Source: Pyrobaculum aerophilum str. IM2 (lineage in GTDB: Archaea > Thermoproteota > Thermoprotei > Thermoproteales > Thermoproteaceae). From it: a stretch of DNA of 32,000 nucleotides. The notes beneath the pieces were generated by a model. The model was not told where the DNA came from and did no database searches. It was given only the letters and a program-made list of their open reading frames with translations. The first letter of the stretch is position 1. Each line of letters begins with the position of its first letter. The position numbers and the translations under genes were made by a program. The DNA is taken from NCBI RefSeq assembly GCF_000007225.1, contig NC_003364.1, positions 660,001 to 692,000 of the forward strand, given 5' to 3'. Positions 3,679 to 20,669 of the stretch are shown here, one piece after another.

Positions 3679-3772
3679 GGGCCCGTAGCTTAGCCAGGTA
3701 GAGCGCCCTGGGGCCCAGCCCCGCGCAAGGCTCATAACCGGGCGGTCCCGGGTTCAAATCCCGGCGGGCCCA
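3679..3772 (+). tRNA. tRNA with anticodon CAT (elongator Met or Ile2), containing a 20-nt intron inside the anticodon stem
   Basis: Manual fold: acceptor GGGCCCG/CGGGCCC, U8, D stem GCTT/GAGC with a GG D-loop, T arm CCGGG-TTCAAAT-CCCGG, variable loop CGGTC, discriminator A. Removing 3709-3728 gives anticodon stem CCCGG/CCGGG and loop CTCATAA (CAT at 3733-3735). The mature length is 74 nt plus a 20-nt intron, which equals the 94-nt span. G1:C72 rules out an initiator tRNA. CCA is not encoded. Confidence 0.85.
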
Positions 3773-3773
3773 C

Positions 3774-3794: not shown

Positions 3795-4729
3795 GTGAGA
3801 GTAGCCCGGCCTCACCAGCGCTTCTTAGCAGCGTTGTGGAAATTTATTTATCGTGCCAGTCTGTTAACATTGCCCCCCAAGTGGGATGAGGAAGAGAAGA
3901 AGGGGAAATGGACTCACAGCTTTGAGGCAACGTGGCGGGAGTTGCAGGACACCTCTCCCAAGTCTACTCCATATGTGACGTATGGCTTAATTGCCGCAAA
4001 CGTCATTATGTTTATCGCCACTTGGGGGCTGTGTTTGATAATCCTTGGACTGTTGGGATTACGGCGTCGGAATTTGTGGAAAACCCGCTTAACCCCAAGG
4101 TAATTCTCTCCATGTTTGCCCACGCCGGGATATTTCATATATTGGGCAATATGCTTTTTCTGTATAAATACGGCGATAACGTCGAGGCGGCAATGGGGAG
4201 GCTGAGGTACCTCCTCTTTTACTTGGCTTATTGCTACGTGGCAGTGGCGGCGCAGATGTTGTTCGCCTCAGCTACGGGCTTGCCGAGACAAATGCTCGCT
4301 CCTATGGTAGGGGCGTCGGGGGCTATAAGCGGGGTATTAGGCGCATATATATACCTCTGGCCCGGATCATCCACTTACAGGTGTTTCTGTATCCGTTATG
4401 CGTGTTATTGTAGAAAAATGGCGGCTCGCTATGATATAGCAATATGGGCTGGCTTTCAATTCCTATTGCCGTTGCTAGAGCCTTCCGTCGCGGTGTTTGC
4501 CCACACGGGGGGTTTAATTGCTGGCGTTGCATTGGCGCCTTTATTTGCCAAGCGGGAAAACGTGGAAAGGCTGAGGGAGGACATAAGAGAGGGAAAGTTC
4601 CGGGGCCTCCAGCCTGAGGAGGACGAAGTAATAATAAAGGGCTGGGACGGCGTTGTCAAAGCCGTGCTTGCGGCGGTTGTGTTCGTAGTACTAATCATCG
4701 CAATTCTCGGCGTTAAGAGCCACACGTGA
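3795..4729 (+). pseudogene. Rhomboid-family intramembrane serine protease, interrupted by a 1-nt frameshift in a G5 run
   Basis: The catalytic core is in the frame of ORF 3932-4729: HAGIFHILGNMLFL, GASGAISG (Ser) and AHTGGLIAG (His). The expected TM1 (TPYVTYGLIAANVIMFIATWG) is in the frame of ORF 3795-4103. The frames switch at GGGGG 4024-4028, and one extra G restores a single ORF (935 nt + 1 = 936). The N-terminal start (GTG 3795) is uncertain. Confidence 0.75.
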
Positions 4730-4741
4730 CAAGTATACTCG

Positions 4742-5059
4742 GTGAAATTTAAGTCGAGTGGGTACGTGGAAGAGGCGGTTAAGCCAGGCCCGCCGCGACC
4801 CATGACTGTGGAGAAAGTTGTCGTTTACTCGGAGAGTTGCTACCCCATGACTCAACTGCCCACATGCACCTTTCAAAACGGCCAAGTGTACTGCTCCTCG
4901 ATTATAATCCCGGGCTGCCCCGTTGTGGACAGGTATATTTTAGTCAGACACGGCCCCGCCACTAATGCGGGCGTGGTCGCCTCCATTGCCGCGTTAGCCG
5001 CCATATCGCTTCAACTCGCCCGGGCGGTAAGGACGCAGAGGGAGTGGGAAATCCTCTAG
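4742..5059 (+). CDS. Hypothetical Cys-rich protein with a C-terminal hydrophobic anchor
   Basis: This ORF is supported only by its reading frame. The alternative start ATG 4802 gives MTVEKVVVY. The C-terminal segment AGVVASIAALAAISLQLA looks like a transmembrane helix. I recognised no family. Confidence 0.3.
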   Translation: MKFKSSGYVEEAVKPGPPRPMTVEKVVVYSESCYPMTQLPTCTFQNGQVYCSSIIIPGCPVVDRYILVRHGPATNAGVVASIAALAAISLQLARAVRTQREWEIL

Positions 5060-5191: not shown

Positions 5192-6112
5192 ATGCGCTAC
5201 AGAGAGTCCATGGGGCTTAGGATCTCTGAAATAAGCTTCGGCGGTTGGGTCGTGGGGAGCGACTTGTACAAAGTCGACGACGACACGGCCAAGCGGTTAG
5301 TGAAAAGGGCAATAGACCTCGGGATTAATTTCTTCGACACGGCTGACGTATACGGAAGAGGGAGGAGCGAGAAGTTGCTGGGGGAGTGGCTGAAGGGACA
5401 CGATGTGGTCATCTCAACAAAGGTGGGCTACGATTTTTATAACGGGCCGCGGCCCGAGAGGAGATTCGACCCAGAGTATTTAGAATTTGCCGTCGCCAAG
5501 TCTTCAGAGAGGCTTGGGGTTAAGCCCCGCCTCTTGATGTTACACAACCCCCCTCTCGGGGCTATAAAAACATCGGCGCGATACGTCCTGGCTAAAAGAG
5601 GCCAGTGGGCGGATTACATAGGCGTCGCCCTAGGCCCCGAGACAAACGTCCTAGCCGAGGGCATAGCAGCGCTTGAGGAGGGGTACGACGCGTTAATGTT
5701 TGTATTTAATCTGCTGGAACAGGAGCCGGGGCTGGAGTTAATTAGGCGAGGCGCTGGCAGAATACTCCTCGCCAGAGTTCCCCATGCAAGCGACGTGTTG
5801 ACAGACCGCTTCCGGCCCGAGTTCCCGCCAGATGATCACCGCTCTTTGAGGAAAAGGGAGTGGTTGCTAAAGGCCAGGAGGCTCGTTGAGGCAGAAATTA
5901 TCCCCTTGGCTAAAGAGCTCGGCCTAACGCTGGGGCAGTACGCGCTTAAATTCGTCCTCTCCTTTCCGATCACCAGTGTCGTCATCACGGCCACCTCTGT
6001 CGAAGAACTTGAGGAATACGCCGAGGCTTCAGACGGCCGCCCGCTACCCAGACACCACCTCCAAAAAATCGCAGAGTTCTGGTCGGCGAATAAGACTGAG
6101 CTAACCGCCTAA
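5192..6112 (+). CDS. Aldo/keto reductase family oxidoreductase
   Basis: 306 aa. The N-terminus LRISEISFGGW..., then INFFDTADVYGRGRSEKLLGEW and a later KVGY segment, are typical AKR signatures. Confidence 0.85.
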   Translation: MRYRESMGLRISEISFGGWVVGSDLYKVDDDTAKRLVKRAIDLGINFFDTADVYGRGRSEKLLGEWLKGHDVVISTKVGYDFYNGPRPERRFDPEYLEFAVAKSSERLGVKPRLLMLHNPPLGAIKTSARYVLAKRGQWADYIGVALGPETNVLAEGIAALEEGYDALMFVFNLLEQEPGLELIRRGAGRILLARVPHASDVLTDRFRPEFPPDDHRSLRKREWLLKARRLVEAEIIPLAKELGLTLGQYALKFVLSFPITSVVITATSVEELEEYAEASDGRPLPRHHLQKIAEFWSANKTELTA

Positions 6113-16918: not shown

Positions 16919-17299
16919 ATGTTATTAAAAATTGGCGTTTTATTTGACGTGGACGTGTGGTATAAATTGAGGTATCTTTGGGCCAGCCTCACCTACAGGG
17001 GGAGGCCTGTGGTTAGGCGAGTGCGTTATACAGAAGACATTGTGGAGGAGGTGGTGAGACACTGCCCAAGGCCGTACAGAATGATGTGTTTCGCCGCTGT
17101 GAGGGAGCTAAACCTCAGCCTCTCGGCCATAGCAGACGCCGGGAGAGACGTGCCAACCGCCGTGGCTCTGGCTCTGGAGGACGTCACCTCGGGGAGTCCG
17201 GACATGCCGCGGTTTTGGAAATACATAAGAACCGGCGACCCGGGCCCTGAGGCCGCGACCTTATTGCAAAAGTGGAGAAGTGCCTTTCGCCCCCGCTAA
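16919..17299 (+). CDS. Hypothetical protein (start uncertain)
   Basis: 126 aa. The stop overlaps the MNT gene stop (convergent). There is no clear promoter upstream of ATG 16919, and an internal TTATTAAAAATT suggests a later GTG start. Confidence 0.35.
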   Translation: MLLKIGVLFDVDVWYKLRYLWASLTYRGRPVVRRVRYTEDIVEEVVRHCPRPYRMMCFAAVRELNLSLSAIADAGRDVPTAVALALEDVTSGSPDMPRFWKYIRTGDPGPEAATLLQKWRSAFRPR

Positions 17300-17616
17300 A
17301 TAATCCTCTTCCAATAGCGCATGGCGTCTCTCAACACGGCGGACTTGATCTCTCCCAGCTCCTCCGGCGCGTAGGGCAAGACGTCAAAACTGTGTTTTAA
17401 GTCGAGGCGCGCCTCCACCTTAGCCACTAGCTCCAGCCGCCTCAGCCAAGGCATTCCTCTAAACGCAGGCGAGACGATTACTATATCAACATCGCTGTCA
17501 TAGAGCCAATCCCCCCTAGCCCAGGAGCCGAAGAGATAAACGGCATCAACCTCAACGCCCTCCCGCCTAAGTGCCTCTACTAGCTTTAAGATTTCGTCAA
17601 CAACTTCCTTCGCCAT
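17296..17616 (-). CDS. Minimal nucleotidyltransferase (MNT), antitoxin-type partner of HEPN
   Basis: 106 aa with the Pol-beta-superfamily motif YLFGSWARGDWLYDSDVDIVIVS. The start overlaps the HEPN 3' end by 20 nt. Confidence 0.85.
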   Translation of the reverse strand: MAKEVVDEILKLVEALRREGVEVDAVYLFGSWARGDWLYDSDVDIVIVSPAFRGMPWLRRLELVAKVEARLDLKHSFDVLPYAPEELGEIKSAVLRDAMRYWKRII

Positions 17617-18004
17617 ATATAAGCGAGGCGAGTCTAATTAACTCCTTGGCAATTTCCAAGGCGTATTCAGCCTCGCGTTTAGTGAAAAGCTCAGAGGGGG
17701 GACCGCCGGCGGCGTCTGGATATCTAGAAGTGGCGTAGTATTTAGTGAGAACTGCCAGCCCGTCGACCAGCTGGGGCGAGAGCTCTGCCCCGTGTTGTTT
17801 AAGCTCTCTGTACAGTTCTAACAAGTTGTGCCTTTTGGGAGGCTCTCTCCTCGCAAAGACATAGAAAAGGGATTTTAACACTTTCTCTGCCGCTTGATGG
17901 GAGTAAAAGGCAGAGGAGTGGTAAACCCCCGCGTTAAATAAAAGCTCGGCGGTTTTGCAGTCGCGGATCCCCTCTCTGAACCACATTAATGCCTCTTCCC
18001 TCAT
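17597..18004 (-). CDS. HEPN domain protein (toxin-type partner of MNT)
   Basis: 135 aa. YSHQAAEKVLKSL ... HNLLELY ... YYATSRYPD is the classical HEPN (kanamycin-NTase-associated type) pattern. Confidence 0.85.
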   Translation of the reverse strand: MREEALMWFREGIRDCKTAELLFNAGVYHSSAFYSHQAAEKVLKSLFYVFARREPPKRHNLLELYRELKQHGAELSPQLVDGLAVLTKYYATSRYPDAAGGPPSELFTKREAEYALEIAKELIRLASLIYGEGSC

Positions 18005-18882
18005 GTCACCTGCTCCAGTACTATCCCCCTGCCGGACTCAATTCTAACTCTAAACGCCTTAGACTCATGCGCCGTCATTCTCATCTTTTTAATAATAAGC
18101 CAGCGGCGCACCTCCTTTGCCGTCTCCACGTCGTCCATCCACATGTGAATCACGCCGTCGGCGATATGCTCTAAGCCGAAGCCGTAAGCCTGCCGCGTAG
18201 TTGGCGCATACTGGCTTGTGAGCATCGCCGTCACGTTATCCCTATGCGTGGCGATTTTCAACTGGTACGAGTACTTACGGGCCATGACCGGCTTATCAAC
18301 CCAGAAGGCTGACATGGAGTCTATCACCAGCCTCACGTGGCGCTCCGGCGTCCCCTTCTCCCCGGCCACCGCCAAGATGTGATAGGCCTCGTTTATTGCT
18401 TCAATTAACGTGTCAATTGACAAAGCGGCATAGCGCTTAACTTTCTCAGGGCTCTCCTCCTTTGACTTTTCCGTCAACTGTCTCGCCACTTTTAAAAGGC
18501 CGAAGATATCTATCACCACAATCTCCGGCAACTCCTCCGGCTCTTTCTTCCACGCGATGTTATACACTGAAAACCGGGAGAAGTCCATGCCCAGTTGCTT
18601 GGCCTGCTCCATAACGTCTCTAAACTCCTGCTCCGTTGTGACGTACACCACCGGATCCCCGGCCCTCAGCCCGGCGTAGGCGAAGTGAATACAGAGAATA
18701 GACTTCCCCACTCCCGGCTCACCAGTCACTACAACCCAGCTGCCTTGGGGGATGCCCCCCTCCAACGCCTTGTCCAACACATCAACGCCTGTAGATATCC
18801 TCTTCACGAAAAACTCCGGAGAGGGGGTTAAAAAAGCTGTGAGCCCCTCAAGCAGTAACATACAATGCATAGGCCAGGGCAA
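18001..18882 (-). CDS. KaiC-like / RecA-superfamily ATPase (single domain)
   Basis: ISTGVDVLDKALEGGIPQGSWVVVTGEPGVGKS (Walker A) and RLVIDSMSAF (Walker B) are present. Start candidates are TTG 18882, ATG 18870 and ATG 18861. TATA-like TTTTAATTC (minus strand, about 18911-18920) lies upstream. The stop shares ATGA with the HEPN start. Confidence 0.8.
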   Translation of the reverse strand: MPWPMHCMLLLEGLTAFLTPSPEFFVKRISTGVDVLDKALEGGIPQGSWVVVTGEPGVGKSILCIHFAYAGLRAGDPVVYVTTEQEFRDVMEQAKQLGMDFSRFSVYNIAWKKEPEELPEIVVIDIFGLLKVARQLTEKSKEESPEKVKRYAALSIDTLIEAINEAYHILAVAGEKGTPERHVRLVIDSMSAFWVDKPVMARKYSYQLKIATHRDNVTAMLTSQYAPTTRQAYGFGLEHIADGVIHMWMDDVETAKEVRRWLIIKKMRMTAHESKAFRVRIESGRGIVLEQVT

Positions 18883-19223
18883 CCTCTCAACACGTCGTGC
18901 ACCATCTCGCGAATTAAAACCGCCAAGCTTCAGGTACTAGCTTAAATAACCACACTCTAAACTCATCGCAACGACTAGAAAGCGGAGGGCAATTCCTTTA
19001 TATTGCGACTGCTCCCGCAGAGCTGGTTTTAAGGCTTGCGGCAATTACCGCATTATCGTAAAGAACCTGTCCGCCTCTCAGCTAGTTTTTAACCACATCT
19101 ACAGATTTGTCGCATTTACATGTGCGGTCAAAGCCGCGGGAGAGGGGGAATTACCAAAGGCCTTGTGCTCGCGCTGTGGGTAAAACACTGCATATCTATT
19201 TAAGGCTGGCCTATCCCCTCCAC

Positions 19224-19543: not shown

Positions 19544-19600
19544 ATACGGCAGGATCAGCCCCAGAGCCGGCCGGACGGCCGCCTGTGATAGGGGCCCCGG

Positions 19601-19942
19601 TCAAAACCTCTGTTTGTTCTTCTCGAGCTTTTTAAAAAACTCCCGCTCCAAGTCCAGCTCCAGTAGGCCGGCCATGGTTATGACGTAGATAAACACGTCC
19701 GTCAGCTCCTCGGCCAGAGCCTCTTTCACATCGCCGAGCTTAACGTCGCCACGCCCGTAGACAACGCTCCTCACAACCTTCTTGACAATATTTGCCGCCT
19801 CGCCAACCTCTCCCGCTAGGGCGTTTGTAAAATACTCAAGTCTCAGCGCTAGATCTTTCTCATCTTTTATGTCCCAAAACTGGGGGACTTTCTCCTGGGA
19901 GAAGGCGGTCTGTATTTTCACAATCTCCCTTAACTCCACCAC
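19601..19942 (-). CDS. MazG-like all-alpha nucleoside triphosphate pyrophosphohydrolase
   Basis: 113 aa. The pattern LAGEVGEAANIVKK ... LAEELTDVFIYVITMA matches the MazG metal-binding EExxE/D helices. Confidence 0.8.
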   Translation of the reverse strand: MVELREIVKIQTAFSQEKVPQFWDIKDEKDLALRLEYFTNALAGEVGEAANIVKKVVRSVVYGRGDVKLGDVKEALAEELTDVFIYVITMAGLLELDLEREFFKKLEKNKQRF

Positions 19943-20017: not shown

Positions 20018-20320
20018 ATGTTCACAGTTGAGCTGTACCCAGCCCTCTACCTAAGGGCGGAGGGCGCCAGGCGGTATAGAGTGAATTGGTACAGAGTATT
20101 CGGCAGATCCGACTTCCTCTGGCACCCGCGCCACCAGTTTATCTCCAGAAGGCACTTCGCTGTGGGTTACGAAGAGGGCGTTTATTTCGTAGAAGACTTG
20201 GGCAGCACTAACGGCACGTTTTTAAACGGAGTGGACATTAGAGGGAAGGGAAGGGCGAGGCTTCAGCCAGGAGATGTGATAAACGTGGCCGGGGTTTTGG
20301 AGCTGGCGGTGGAATTTTAA
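20018..20320 (+). CDS. Stand-alone FHA domain protein
   Basis: 100 aa with FGRSD ... ISRRHFAV ... YFVEDLGSTNGTFLNG ... LQPGDVI, which is the full FHA signature (GR, SxxH, NG). Confidence 0.85.
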   Translation: MFTVELYPALYLRAEGARRYRVNWYRVFGRSDFLWHPRHQFISRRHFAVGYEEGVYFVEDLGSTNGTFLNGVDIRGKGRARLQPGDVINVAGVLELAVEF

Positions 20321-20339
20321 TGTAGGATGCGAGTAGTGC

Positions 20340-20669
20340 GTGATAGAGGTAGTAGCCATAGTGCCCGTTGAGGTGGGCATTTGCAAAACTTGCGACCAAG
20401 TGGCCAATGTCTTTAAAATTAAAATGAGGGAGGAGCTCCCCTACGGCGCTGGGGACTTAGACGCGTTGCTACAGGCGTTATCTAAGGCCGAGCCTCACTC
20501 CGTTAGGTTTACAAGCCCCTTCACTCTCAGAGGCCTTTTCCTAATGATTAAATACAAGACTGGGAAGTTGCCCTTAGTAATAGCCAACGGCAAGCTCGTC
20601 CACTCGGGGCCTGTGAAATACCCCGATGAATTGTTAAAAAAGCTAAGGGCCGCATTAGAGATAGGATAA
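20340..20669 (+). CDS. Small thioredoxin-fold-like protein with a CxxC motif
   Basis: A beta strand followed by CKTC at a helix N-terminus, then LPLVIANGKLV (cis-Pro-like) and a C-terminal helix, fits a Trx/Grx-like fold. GTG start. The gene lies 20 nt downstream of the FHA gene. Confidence 0.45.
   Translation: MIEVVAIVPVEVGICKTCDQVANVFKIKMREELPYGAGDLDALLQALSKAEPHSVRFTSPFTLRGLFLMIKYKTGKLPLVIANGKLVHSGPVKYPDELLKKLRAALEIG

Follow-up and report, generated by a model that had tools for sequence, protein, structure and literature searches.

Gene organization of the locus

The stretch analyzed here (the window) is 32,000 nucleotides (nt) of Pyrobaculum aerophilum str. IM2 (contig NC_003364.1, positions 660,001 to 692,000 of the forward strand), and the coordinates below are counted from its first letter. 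We studied a minus-strand array in which the gene of a KaiC-like ATPase is followed by a HEPN gene and by the gene of a minimal nucleotidyltransferase (MNT). An original prediction, made from the letters alone, had joined the three genes in one operon and suggested that the ATPase is an integral part of a toxin switch. The three minus-strand open reading frames (ORFs) were found as it had described them, with the ATPase ORF at 18001..18882, HEPN at 17597..18004 and MNT at 17296..17616. The features of the array are as follows.

18001..18807, minus strand: KaiC-like ATPase gene, KaiC_arch_4 (PAE1156 family), single-domain, with the corrected GTG start (TIGR03881 and PF06745)
18001..18004, minus strand: ATGA overlap of the KaiC stop codon (TGA) and the HEPN start codon (ATG), read directly from the sequence
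17597..18004, minus strand: HEPN gene, 135 aa, of the "HEPN-T"/Class II type (PF05168, 104.7 bits against a cutoff of 22, E = 4.2e-30)
17296..17616, minus strand: MNT gene, minimal nucleotidyltransferase, 106 aa (PF01909, NTP_transf_2, 47.9 bits, E = 1.8e-12; GSX10DXD motif intact)
17296..18004, minus strand: HEPN-MNT cassette, an inserted two-gene unit that is missing at the orthologous site of the nearest relatives
16919..17299, plus strand: orf126, the convergent conserved neighbor, whose orthologues lie about 20 bp after KaiC in the related loci L002, L005, L006 and L008

Both overlaps that had been claimed were confirmed in the sequence: the ATGA at 18001-18004 and the 20 nt shared by HEPN and MNT at 17597-17616. 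The stop codon of orf126, a gene with no Pfam match, overlaps that of MNT, and it is here that the insertion has its far boundary. The motifs GEPGVGKS, RLVIDSM, QAAEKVLKS, TSRYPD and GSWARGD...DSDVDIVIV were all found, and profile searches bore out the identification of the three proteins as KaiC, HEPN and MNT.

The ATPase matched TIGR03881 (KaiC_arch_4) over the whole protein with 351.8 bits (curated cutoff 247.8) and the KaiC family PF06745 with E = 2.8e-43. It contains a single KaiC domain with Walker A (GEPGVGKS) and Walker B (RLVIDSM) and is 268 aa long from the GTG at 18807, as in the KaiC_arch_4/PAE1156 family. The best-studied archaeal relative of this family is ArlH, to which the window ATPase is a distant relative (68.7 bits against a cutoff of 215). 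It is also related only distantly to cyanobacterial KaiC.

Neighborhood of KaiC orthologues

Starting from an alignment of KaiC orthologues (A1), we retrieved 80 loci from species-representative genomes of Pyrobaculum, Thermoproteus, Caldivirga, Ignisphaera, Desulfurococcaceae, Acidilobaceae and Sulfolobales, and 74 of them had enough downstream sequence to judge. Six-frame ORFs of the 80 loci were searched with the window proteins and with iterated HEPN and MNT profiles. Because the iterated hidden Markov models missed a Class I HepT-associated MNT in L092, one of the loci with a related cassette described below, all co-directional ORFs starting within 200 nt past the KaiC stop in the 74 loci were scanned again with Pfam. 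None of these ORFs was a HEPN (PF05168 or PF01934) or an MNT by Pfam. A survey of this kind had been proposed in the original prediction, according to which ATPase orthologues that never neighbor HEPN and MNT genes would indicate accidental adjacency. The results of the protein, profile and Pfam searches showed that co-directional HEPN and MNT genes followed KaiC in 0 of the 74 informative loci.

Clustering of the neighboring genes revealed no family near KaiC that was common to more than 16 of the 80 loci. In every lineage-specific synteny block the gene directly after KaiC was convergent, with a gap of 7-30 bp. By its neighborhoods, the conserved KaiC_arch_4 gene normally stands alone and is monocistronic.

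HEPN-MNT pairs lay directly upstream of KaiC, in divergent orientation, in three loci (L026, L030 and L034). The KaiC proteins of these loci are 97-100% identical and represent one Desulfurococcaceae lineage. Their HEPN-MNT pairs differ from locus to locus, and the HEPNs are only 29-37% identical to that of the window. We rejected these loci as a sign of enrichment, since they come from one lineage, are divergent, involve other subfamilies and differ even among near-identical genomes. About ten HEPN/MNT modules were counted in approximately 640 kb of flanking sequence of the 80 loci, that is, about one per 64 kb or one per about 70 gene slots. At this density, the chance that a module flanks any given gene is about 3% per genome. 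Because modules are this dense, the adjacency of KaiC and HEPN/MNT in 3 of the 80 loci (one lineage) and in the window lineage is no more than the chance expectation.

A PaREP1 ORF (PF05942, HEPN-T clade, 168 aa) was seen 65 nt downstream of the KaiC homologue of Caldivirga sp. UBA161 (L058, 1954-2460). It is co-directional with KaiC and has no MNT. This adjacency is probably due to chance, because PaREP1 is greatly expanded in Thermoproteales (PMC2701414).

Insertion and mobility of the HEPN-MNT cassette

The gene order ThiBP-KaiC-orf126-orf183 is kept in the nearest Pyrobaculum genomes. In a DNA alignment (A2), the KaiC and orf126 flanks aligned and the HEPN-MNT segment of about 700 bp was missing in L002, L003, L005, L006 and L008. 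The distance from the KaiC stop to the orf126 stop was 6-30 bp in four of these loci and about 170 bp in L003. In P. oguniense TE7 (L004, 6133-7751), the same slot is filled by pdxT (PF01174) and pdxS (PF01680). At this spot between KaiC and orf126, the inserted genes vary from genome to genome. The KaiC protein ends in ...LEQVT* in the window and in ...LESV* in the relatives, which indicates that the ATGA overlap arose at the insertion junction. Target-site duplications and terminal repeats were looked for at the cassette junctions, and only short chance matches were found.

The exact window HEPN protein occurs on at least 22 contigs from metagenomes or metagenome-assembled genomes (MAGs), all in the window context (L081-L090), and these contigs are one population. 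A sister MAG (L091) carries a HEPN of 86% identity in the same order KaiC-HEPN-MNT-orf126, with the same ATGA overlap. HEPN homologues of 79, 74, 68 and 59% identity (L092-L095) keep their paired MNT in four unrelated contexts with no KaiC nearby: in a PIN/CcdA/HepT island, beside a short-chain dehydrogenase, beside Nre and PIN genes, and between EF-2 and carA. The cassette thus stands in five different genomic contexts (L091-L095), and in alignment A3 its homology to these five loci runs from the HEPN start codon to the MNT stop. The overlap of about 20 nt between HEPN and MNT and the HEPN-first order are the same in all copies. The MAGs of L093 and L095 are also the sources of the KaiC loci L003 and L010, which are free of the cassette. 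The HEPN-MNT cassette is autonomous, mobile and patchy in its distribution. At the start position of the HEPN homologue of L095 (Thermoproteus MAG, 3974-4414), the sequence reads ATT instead of ATG. Either the start is non-canonical or the copy has recently been disabled.

The KaiC-adjacent arrangement is confined to the L081-L090 population, a recombinant (L088) and L091. The nearest genome to the window in the flanking genes is L091 (VatB 98%, orf183 97% and KaiC 93% identity). Between the window and L091, the synonymous divergence (dS) was 1.13 for HEPN, 0.80 for MNT and 1.11 for KaiC, and the ratio of nonsynonymous to synonymous divergence (dN/dS) was 0.07 for HEPN and 0.11 for MNT. The matching dS and the low dN/dS indicate that the cassette is a functional gene pair which diverged together with the locus. 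Both HEPN and MNT are under purifying selection. In L088 (KaiC 4198-5004), nt 1-600 of KaiC are 97-99% identical to P. oguniense TE7, whereas nt 600-807, HEPN, MNT and the genes downstream match the window with 100% identity, so that the breakpoint lies inside KaiC. This recombinant allele indicates that the cassette also moves between Pyrobaculum populations by homologous recombination of its flanks.

Judging by the sequences, a single insertion fits the KaiC-adjacent copies, and the ATGA overlap in L091 is consistent with inheritance. We consider it probable that a mobile Class II HEPN-MNT module was inserted once behind KaiC_arch_4 in a small Pyrobaculum sub-lineage and that KaiC is not its functional partner. 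A horizontally mobile PF05168-PF01909 module would have entered the gap of about 20 bp between the 3' ends of KaiC_arch_4 and the convergent orf126 in the ancestor of this sub-lineage. In thermophilic archaea, few genes have been described as equally abundant and mobile as the MNT-HEPN modules (PMC2701414). A comparable case is found in Thermus thermophilus, in which a HEPN-MNT module lies inside the lysine-biosynthesis operon of strain HB8 and not of HB27 (PMC2701414). As in the window, a mobile pair stands inside or behind an unrelated housekeeping transcription unit and is absent in a close relative; the host, the operon and the position of the insertion differ.

Start of KaiC and transcription of the cassette

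The original prediction had the ATPase begin at TTG 18882 and placed the transcript start near 18885-18890. Two features upstream of KaiC bear on these positions.

18828..18835, minus strand: TATA-like box TTTTTTAA, the candidate KaiC promoter element, about 25 nt before GTG 18807
18845..18994, minus strand: decayed C-terminal remnant of an ORF of about 280 aa (tblastn, 48% identity over 52 aa, E = 2e-7)

The KaiC orthologues are 63-91% identical to the window protein and about 267 aa long, covering about 90% of the 293-aa window ORF. The 10 Pyrobaculum orthologues examined all have an A/T octamer (7-8 of 8 positions) 25-28 nt ahead of a conserved GTG; the box of the window is TTTTTTAA at 18835-18828. 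The remnant matches an ORF of about 280 aa that lies ahead of KaiC in P. oguniense (L004), L088 and L091. The decayed remnant accounts for the long spacer between ThiBP and KaiC (420 bp in the window vs about 45 bp in the relatives) and for the spurious N-terminal extension of KaiC. Because of the orthologue length, the conserved spacing of TATA-like box and GTG, and the position of the extension inside the remnant, the predicted start of the ATPase is GTG 18807, and the 25 codons from TTG 18882 are regarded as spurious. Leaderless crenarchaeal genes usually have a TATA-like box at such a distance, 25-28 nt before the start. Given this box and the corrected start, the KaiC mRNA is probably leaderless, and it more likely starts near 18807 than near 18885-18890.

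In about 19 MAGs of Desulfurococcales, Ignisphaera and Sulfolobales (L062-L080, at about 5600-6000), the KaiC_arch_4 orthologue appeared as two match blocks about 330 bp apart, interrupted after residue ~206. One KaiC homologue from the database (P0101, 482 aa) contains the intein-splicing domain PF14890. The KaiC alleles of L062-L080 are probably intein-bearing.

For the cassette itself, the scan for sigma-70 promoters and intrinsic terminators was set aside as inapplicable to archaea, and TATA-like boxes were compared directly. All four independent copies have a box 22-33 nt before the HEPN start (TTTATAAA in L093, TTAAATAC in L094, CTTAAAAA in L095 and GAGTATAT in L092). The KaiC-adjacent copies (window, L088 and L091) have no TATA-like box at -22..-33, where G/C-rich KaiC coding sequence stands instead. 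No oligo-T stretch was found between KaiC and HEPN in the window sequence. Since both the box before HEPN and the oligo-T stretch are missing, it is likely that the cassette is expressed by read-through from the KaiC promoter and that all three genes are co-transcribed, as had been proposed. The inserted cassette, having no promoter of its own, would be expressed as the tail of the leaderless KaiC mRNA from near 18807, and HEPN and MNT would be translated through the ATGA and the 20-nt overlaps. At the RNA level, the operon-like packing is therefore probably genuine, but it implies no functional partnership.

The same accidental insertion could also be transcribed from a cryptic promoter in the 3' coding end of KaiC, possibly with a second promoter for MNT, and toxin-antitoxin (TA) modules usually autoregulate their own promoter. 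The 3' codons of KaiC are unusually A/T-rich in the window, with TTTAGAGTTAGAATT at -50..-36 from the HEPN ATG vs TTCAAGGTGAAGATA in the cassette-free relatives; yet this stretch is too far upstream for the leaderless pattern of the independent copies and is weaker in L091 (best 5 of 8 A/T). Inside HEPN, TTAATTAG stands 25 nt before the MNT ATG (17634-17641, minus strand) and, judged by its position, could be an internal promoter for the antitoxin only, although this element is missing from L091-L094. With no oligo-T terminator between KaiC and HEPN either, we regard transcription from a cryptic promoter as unlikely.

Class and predicted chemistry of the HEPN-MNT pair

The GSX10DXD motif of MNT is intact in the translation, with G30-S31, ten residues and D42-V43-D44. 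In an alignment of 15 HEPN homologues down to 27% identity (A4), the columns Q37, K44, P56, H59, S93, R94 and Y95 were invariant. The HEPN protein has no Rx4-6H motif: no His lies 4-6 residues past R94, where the sequence reads S-R94-Y-P-D-A-A-G-G, and D97 stands at the H position. In the HEPN-T pattern, D replaces the canonical H, and an upstream His was proposed to complete an alternative active site (PMC3710099). Class II modules are PF05168/PF01909 pairs with GSX10DXD and a conserved Tyr but without RX4H, a definition that comes from motif analysis only (Yao 2020, PMC7641770). Because the window pair combines PF05168 and PF01909 with GSX10DXD and with H59, S93, R94 and Y95, and has no RX4H, it can be assigned on these features to the Class II HEPN/MNT modules.

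The Class II modules of thermophilic archaea and bacteria (COG2250/COG1708; PMC2701414, PMC3710099, PMC7641770) have the same Pfam pair and small protein sizes. They also share with the window pair the GSX10DXD motif, the conserved Tyr, a His N-terminal to the R motif and a patchy, mobile distribution. There is no essential difference; the window copy has lost a recognizable promoter of its own and abuts an unrelated gene. The window module is an ordinary member of this already known kind. The nearest solved structures are TT1696/1UFB (E = 3.9e-13), 1WOL and TM0613 (1O3U) for HEPN, and 2RFF and AF0614 for MNT, all of them uncharacterized structural-genomics proteins.

The type VII HepT/MntA systems (Class I) are likewise two-gene pairs of a HEPN and a minimal nucleotidyltransferase with GSX10DXD. 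Their toxin belongs to PF01934 (DUF86) or PF08780 and carries RX4HXY, whereas the window HEPN reports PF05168 only at E <= 0.01 and is without this motif. The window MNT scored 30.5 bits against the MntA model NF047752 (cutoff 60). The gene order is also different, with MNT upstream in HepT/MntA and HEPN first in the window. We therefore rejected the window pair as HepT/MntA itself on Pfam family, motif, NF047752 score and gene order. Neutralization of HEPN by MNT through AMPylation, which the original prediction had stated for HEPN-MNT pairs in general, has been shown experimentally for Class I HepT/MntA only (PF01934, RX4HXY) (PMC7641770); for the Class II pair of the window it can be suggested by analogy. 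It is reasonable to suppose that the pair may work like HepT/MntA; by analogy, a Tyr that adjoins the catalytic Arg would plausibly be nucleotidylylated. In that case, the pair would act as a TA-like module. MNT, via GSX10DXD, would nucleotidylylate HEPN, with the invariant Tyr95 beside Arg94 as the most plausible acceptor. This modification would restrain a putative HEPN RNase with an active site made of Arg94 and the alternative His59.

Among named defense systems, PADLOC gave weak matches only (mad8 with 33 bits to the P-loop region of KaiC, AbiV with E = 0.006 to HEPN, and PDC-S09 to MNT), and none was accepted.

The HEPN protein could also be a catalytically inactive substrate- or nucleotide-binding subunit, as in kanamycin nucleotidyltransferase. 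The pair would then modify another target and would be no TA module. HEPN was originally viewed as the substrate-binding partner of MNT (PMC3710099; PMC2701414), and such a role would agree with the missing canonical Rx4-6H and with the treatment of Class II by motif analysis only in PMC7641770. However, H59, R94 and Y95 are invariant down to 27% identity, which fits the alternative active site of PMC3710099, and a mobile, patchy two-gene distribution is typical of TA modules (PMC2701414). We thus think it rather improbable that the pair is no TA module.

Relationship between KaiC and the cassette

Under the reading that we favor, a single insertion of a mobile Class II module, KaiC would stand outside the chemistry of HEPN and MNT, and the shared transcript would be the only link. 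Several points weigh against this reading. The arrangement and its ATGA were kept over a dS of about 1 under purifying selection, which a functional link would predict likewise. The 80 loci omit several cultured Pyrobaculum genomes, so that the survey of the genus is incomplete. The proposed co-transcription is read solely from the missing recognizable TATA box. The gene order is reversed, HEPN first, relative to the characterized HepT/MntA pairs. We also found no report of toxicity, RNase activity or AMPylation for any PF05168-type pair; a paper of 2026 on fused MNT-HEPN proteins mentions neither PF05168 nor COG2250.

It is conceivable but very unlikely that the cassette, after losing its own promoter, was co-opted so that the dosage or activity of toxin and antitoxin follows the expression or state of KaiC. 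If this were true, the cassette would be a lineage-specific, newly evolved KaiC-coupled effector and no passive hitch-hiker. In toxin-antitoxin-chaperone (TAC) systems, the third gene acts on the antitoxin and co-occurs widely with the TA pair. It is co-transcribed with the pair, as is probable in the window. In TAC systems, however, the co-occurrence extends across many genomes, whereas the arrangement studied here is found in the window lineage only and its third gene is a conserved host gene.

The original prediction also noted a stand-alone FHA gene near the array.

20018..20320, plus strand: FHA-domain gene, outside the module (PF00498, E = 1.2e-16)

Its distance, 1.1-1.2 kb, agreed with the prediction, but a linkage to the array did not hold. 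Only the window lineage, L001, L003 and L088 have the FHA gene, and L005-L009 lack it. Together with an adjacent thioredoxin-like ORF of 109 aa, it forms a variable segment (20018-20669, plus strand). In L005-L009, a radical-SAM gene is directly followed by a MazG-like gene, without FHA.

An integral KaiC-HEPN-MNT system, in which KaiC gates the toxin or the antitoxin via ATP or phosphorylation, possibly read by FHA, is hardly credible. The overlapping stop and start codons with a likely single promoter, the retention of the arrangement in both the window and L091 with all three genes under purifying selection, and the three loci of one Desulfurococcaceae lineage speak for it. Against it, the operon occurs in 0 of 74 orthologue loci, the site is empty in the nearest relatives, and the cassette stands by itself in four other contexts (including genomes with a cassette-free KaiC). 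The Desulfurococcaceae pairs are divergent, have HEPNs of 29-37% identity to that of the window, and vary among genomes whose KaiC proteins are 97-100% identical. Nor is the evolution of KaiC accelerated (dN/dS of 0.04 vs L091), and FHA is not conserved at the locus. Neither the place of KaiC as an integral third component nor the ATP- or phosphorylation-gated toxin switch built on it was supported. By the refuting observation that the original prediction itself had named, the proposal is already largely disproved.

This case calls for caution, since overlapping stop and start codons and zero intergenic space do not alone prove a functional unit in compact archaeal genomes. Abundant mobile TA-like modules can fit seamlessly behind housekeeping genes. 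The locus provides a clean, dated Class II HEPN-MNT cassette for which both an empty site and a recombinant allele are available for comparison, and it shows how these modules pass between Pyrobaculum populations. The cassette is well conserved (H59, R94 and Y95 invariant, no RX4H) and belongs to a class that is abundant in hyperthermophiles, and is thus a reasonable test case for activity.

Other features of the window

A Pyrobaculum H/ACA-like small RNA, sRNA 209 (Rfam RF02807, 86.4 bits), was found at 19548-19612 on the plus strand. Its neighbors are the thiamine-binding-protein gene on one side and the MazG-like gene on the other, and it extends over the 3' end of the MazG ORF, which is encoded on the opposite strand. 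Together with the best protein matches, this RNA assigns the window to Pyrobaculum. A tRNA-Gly(CCC) gene lies at 3679-3773 on the plus strand and probably contains an intron, given its length of 95 nt.

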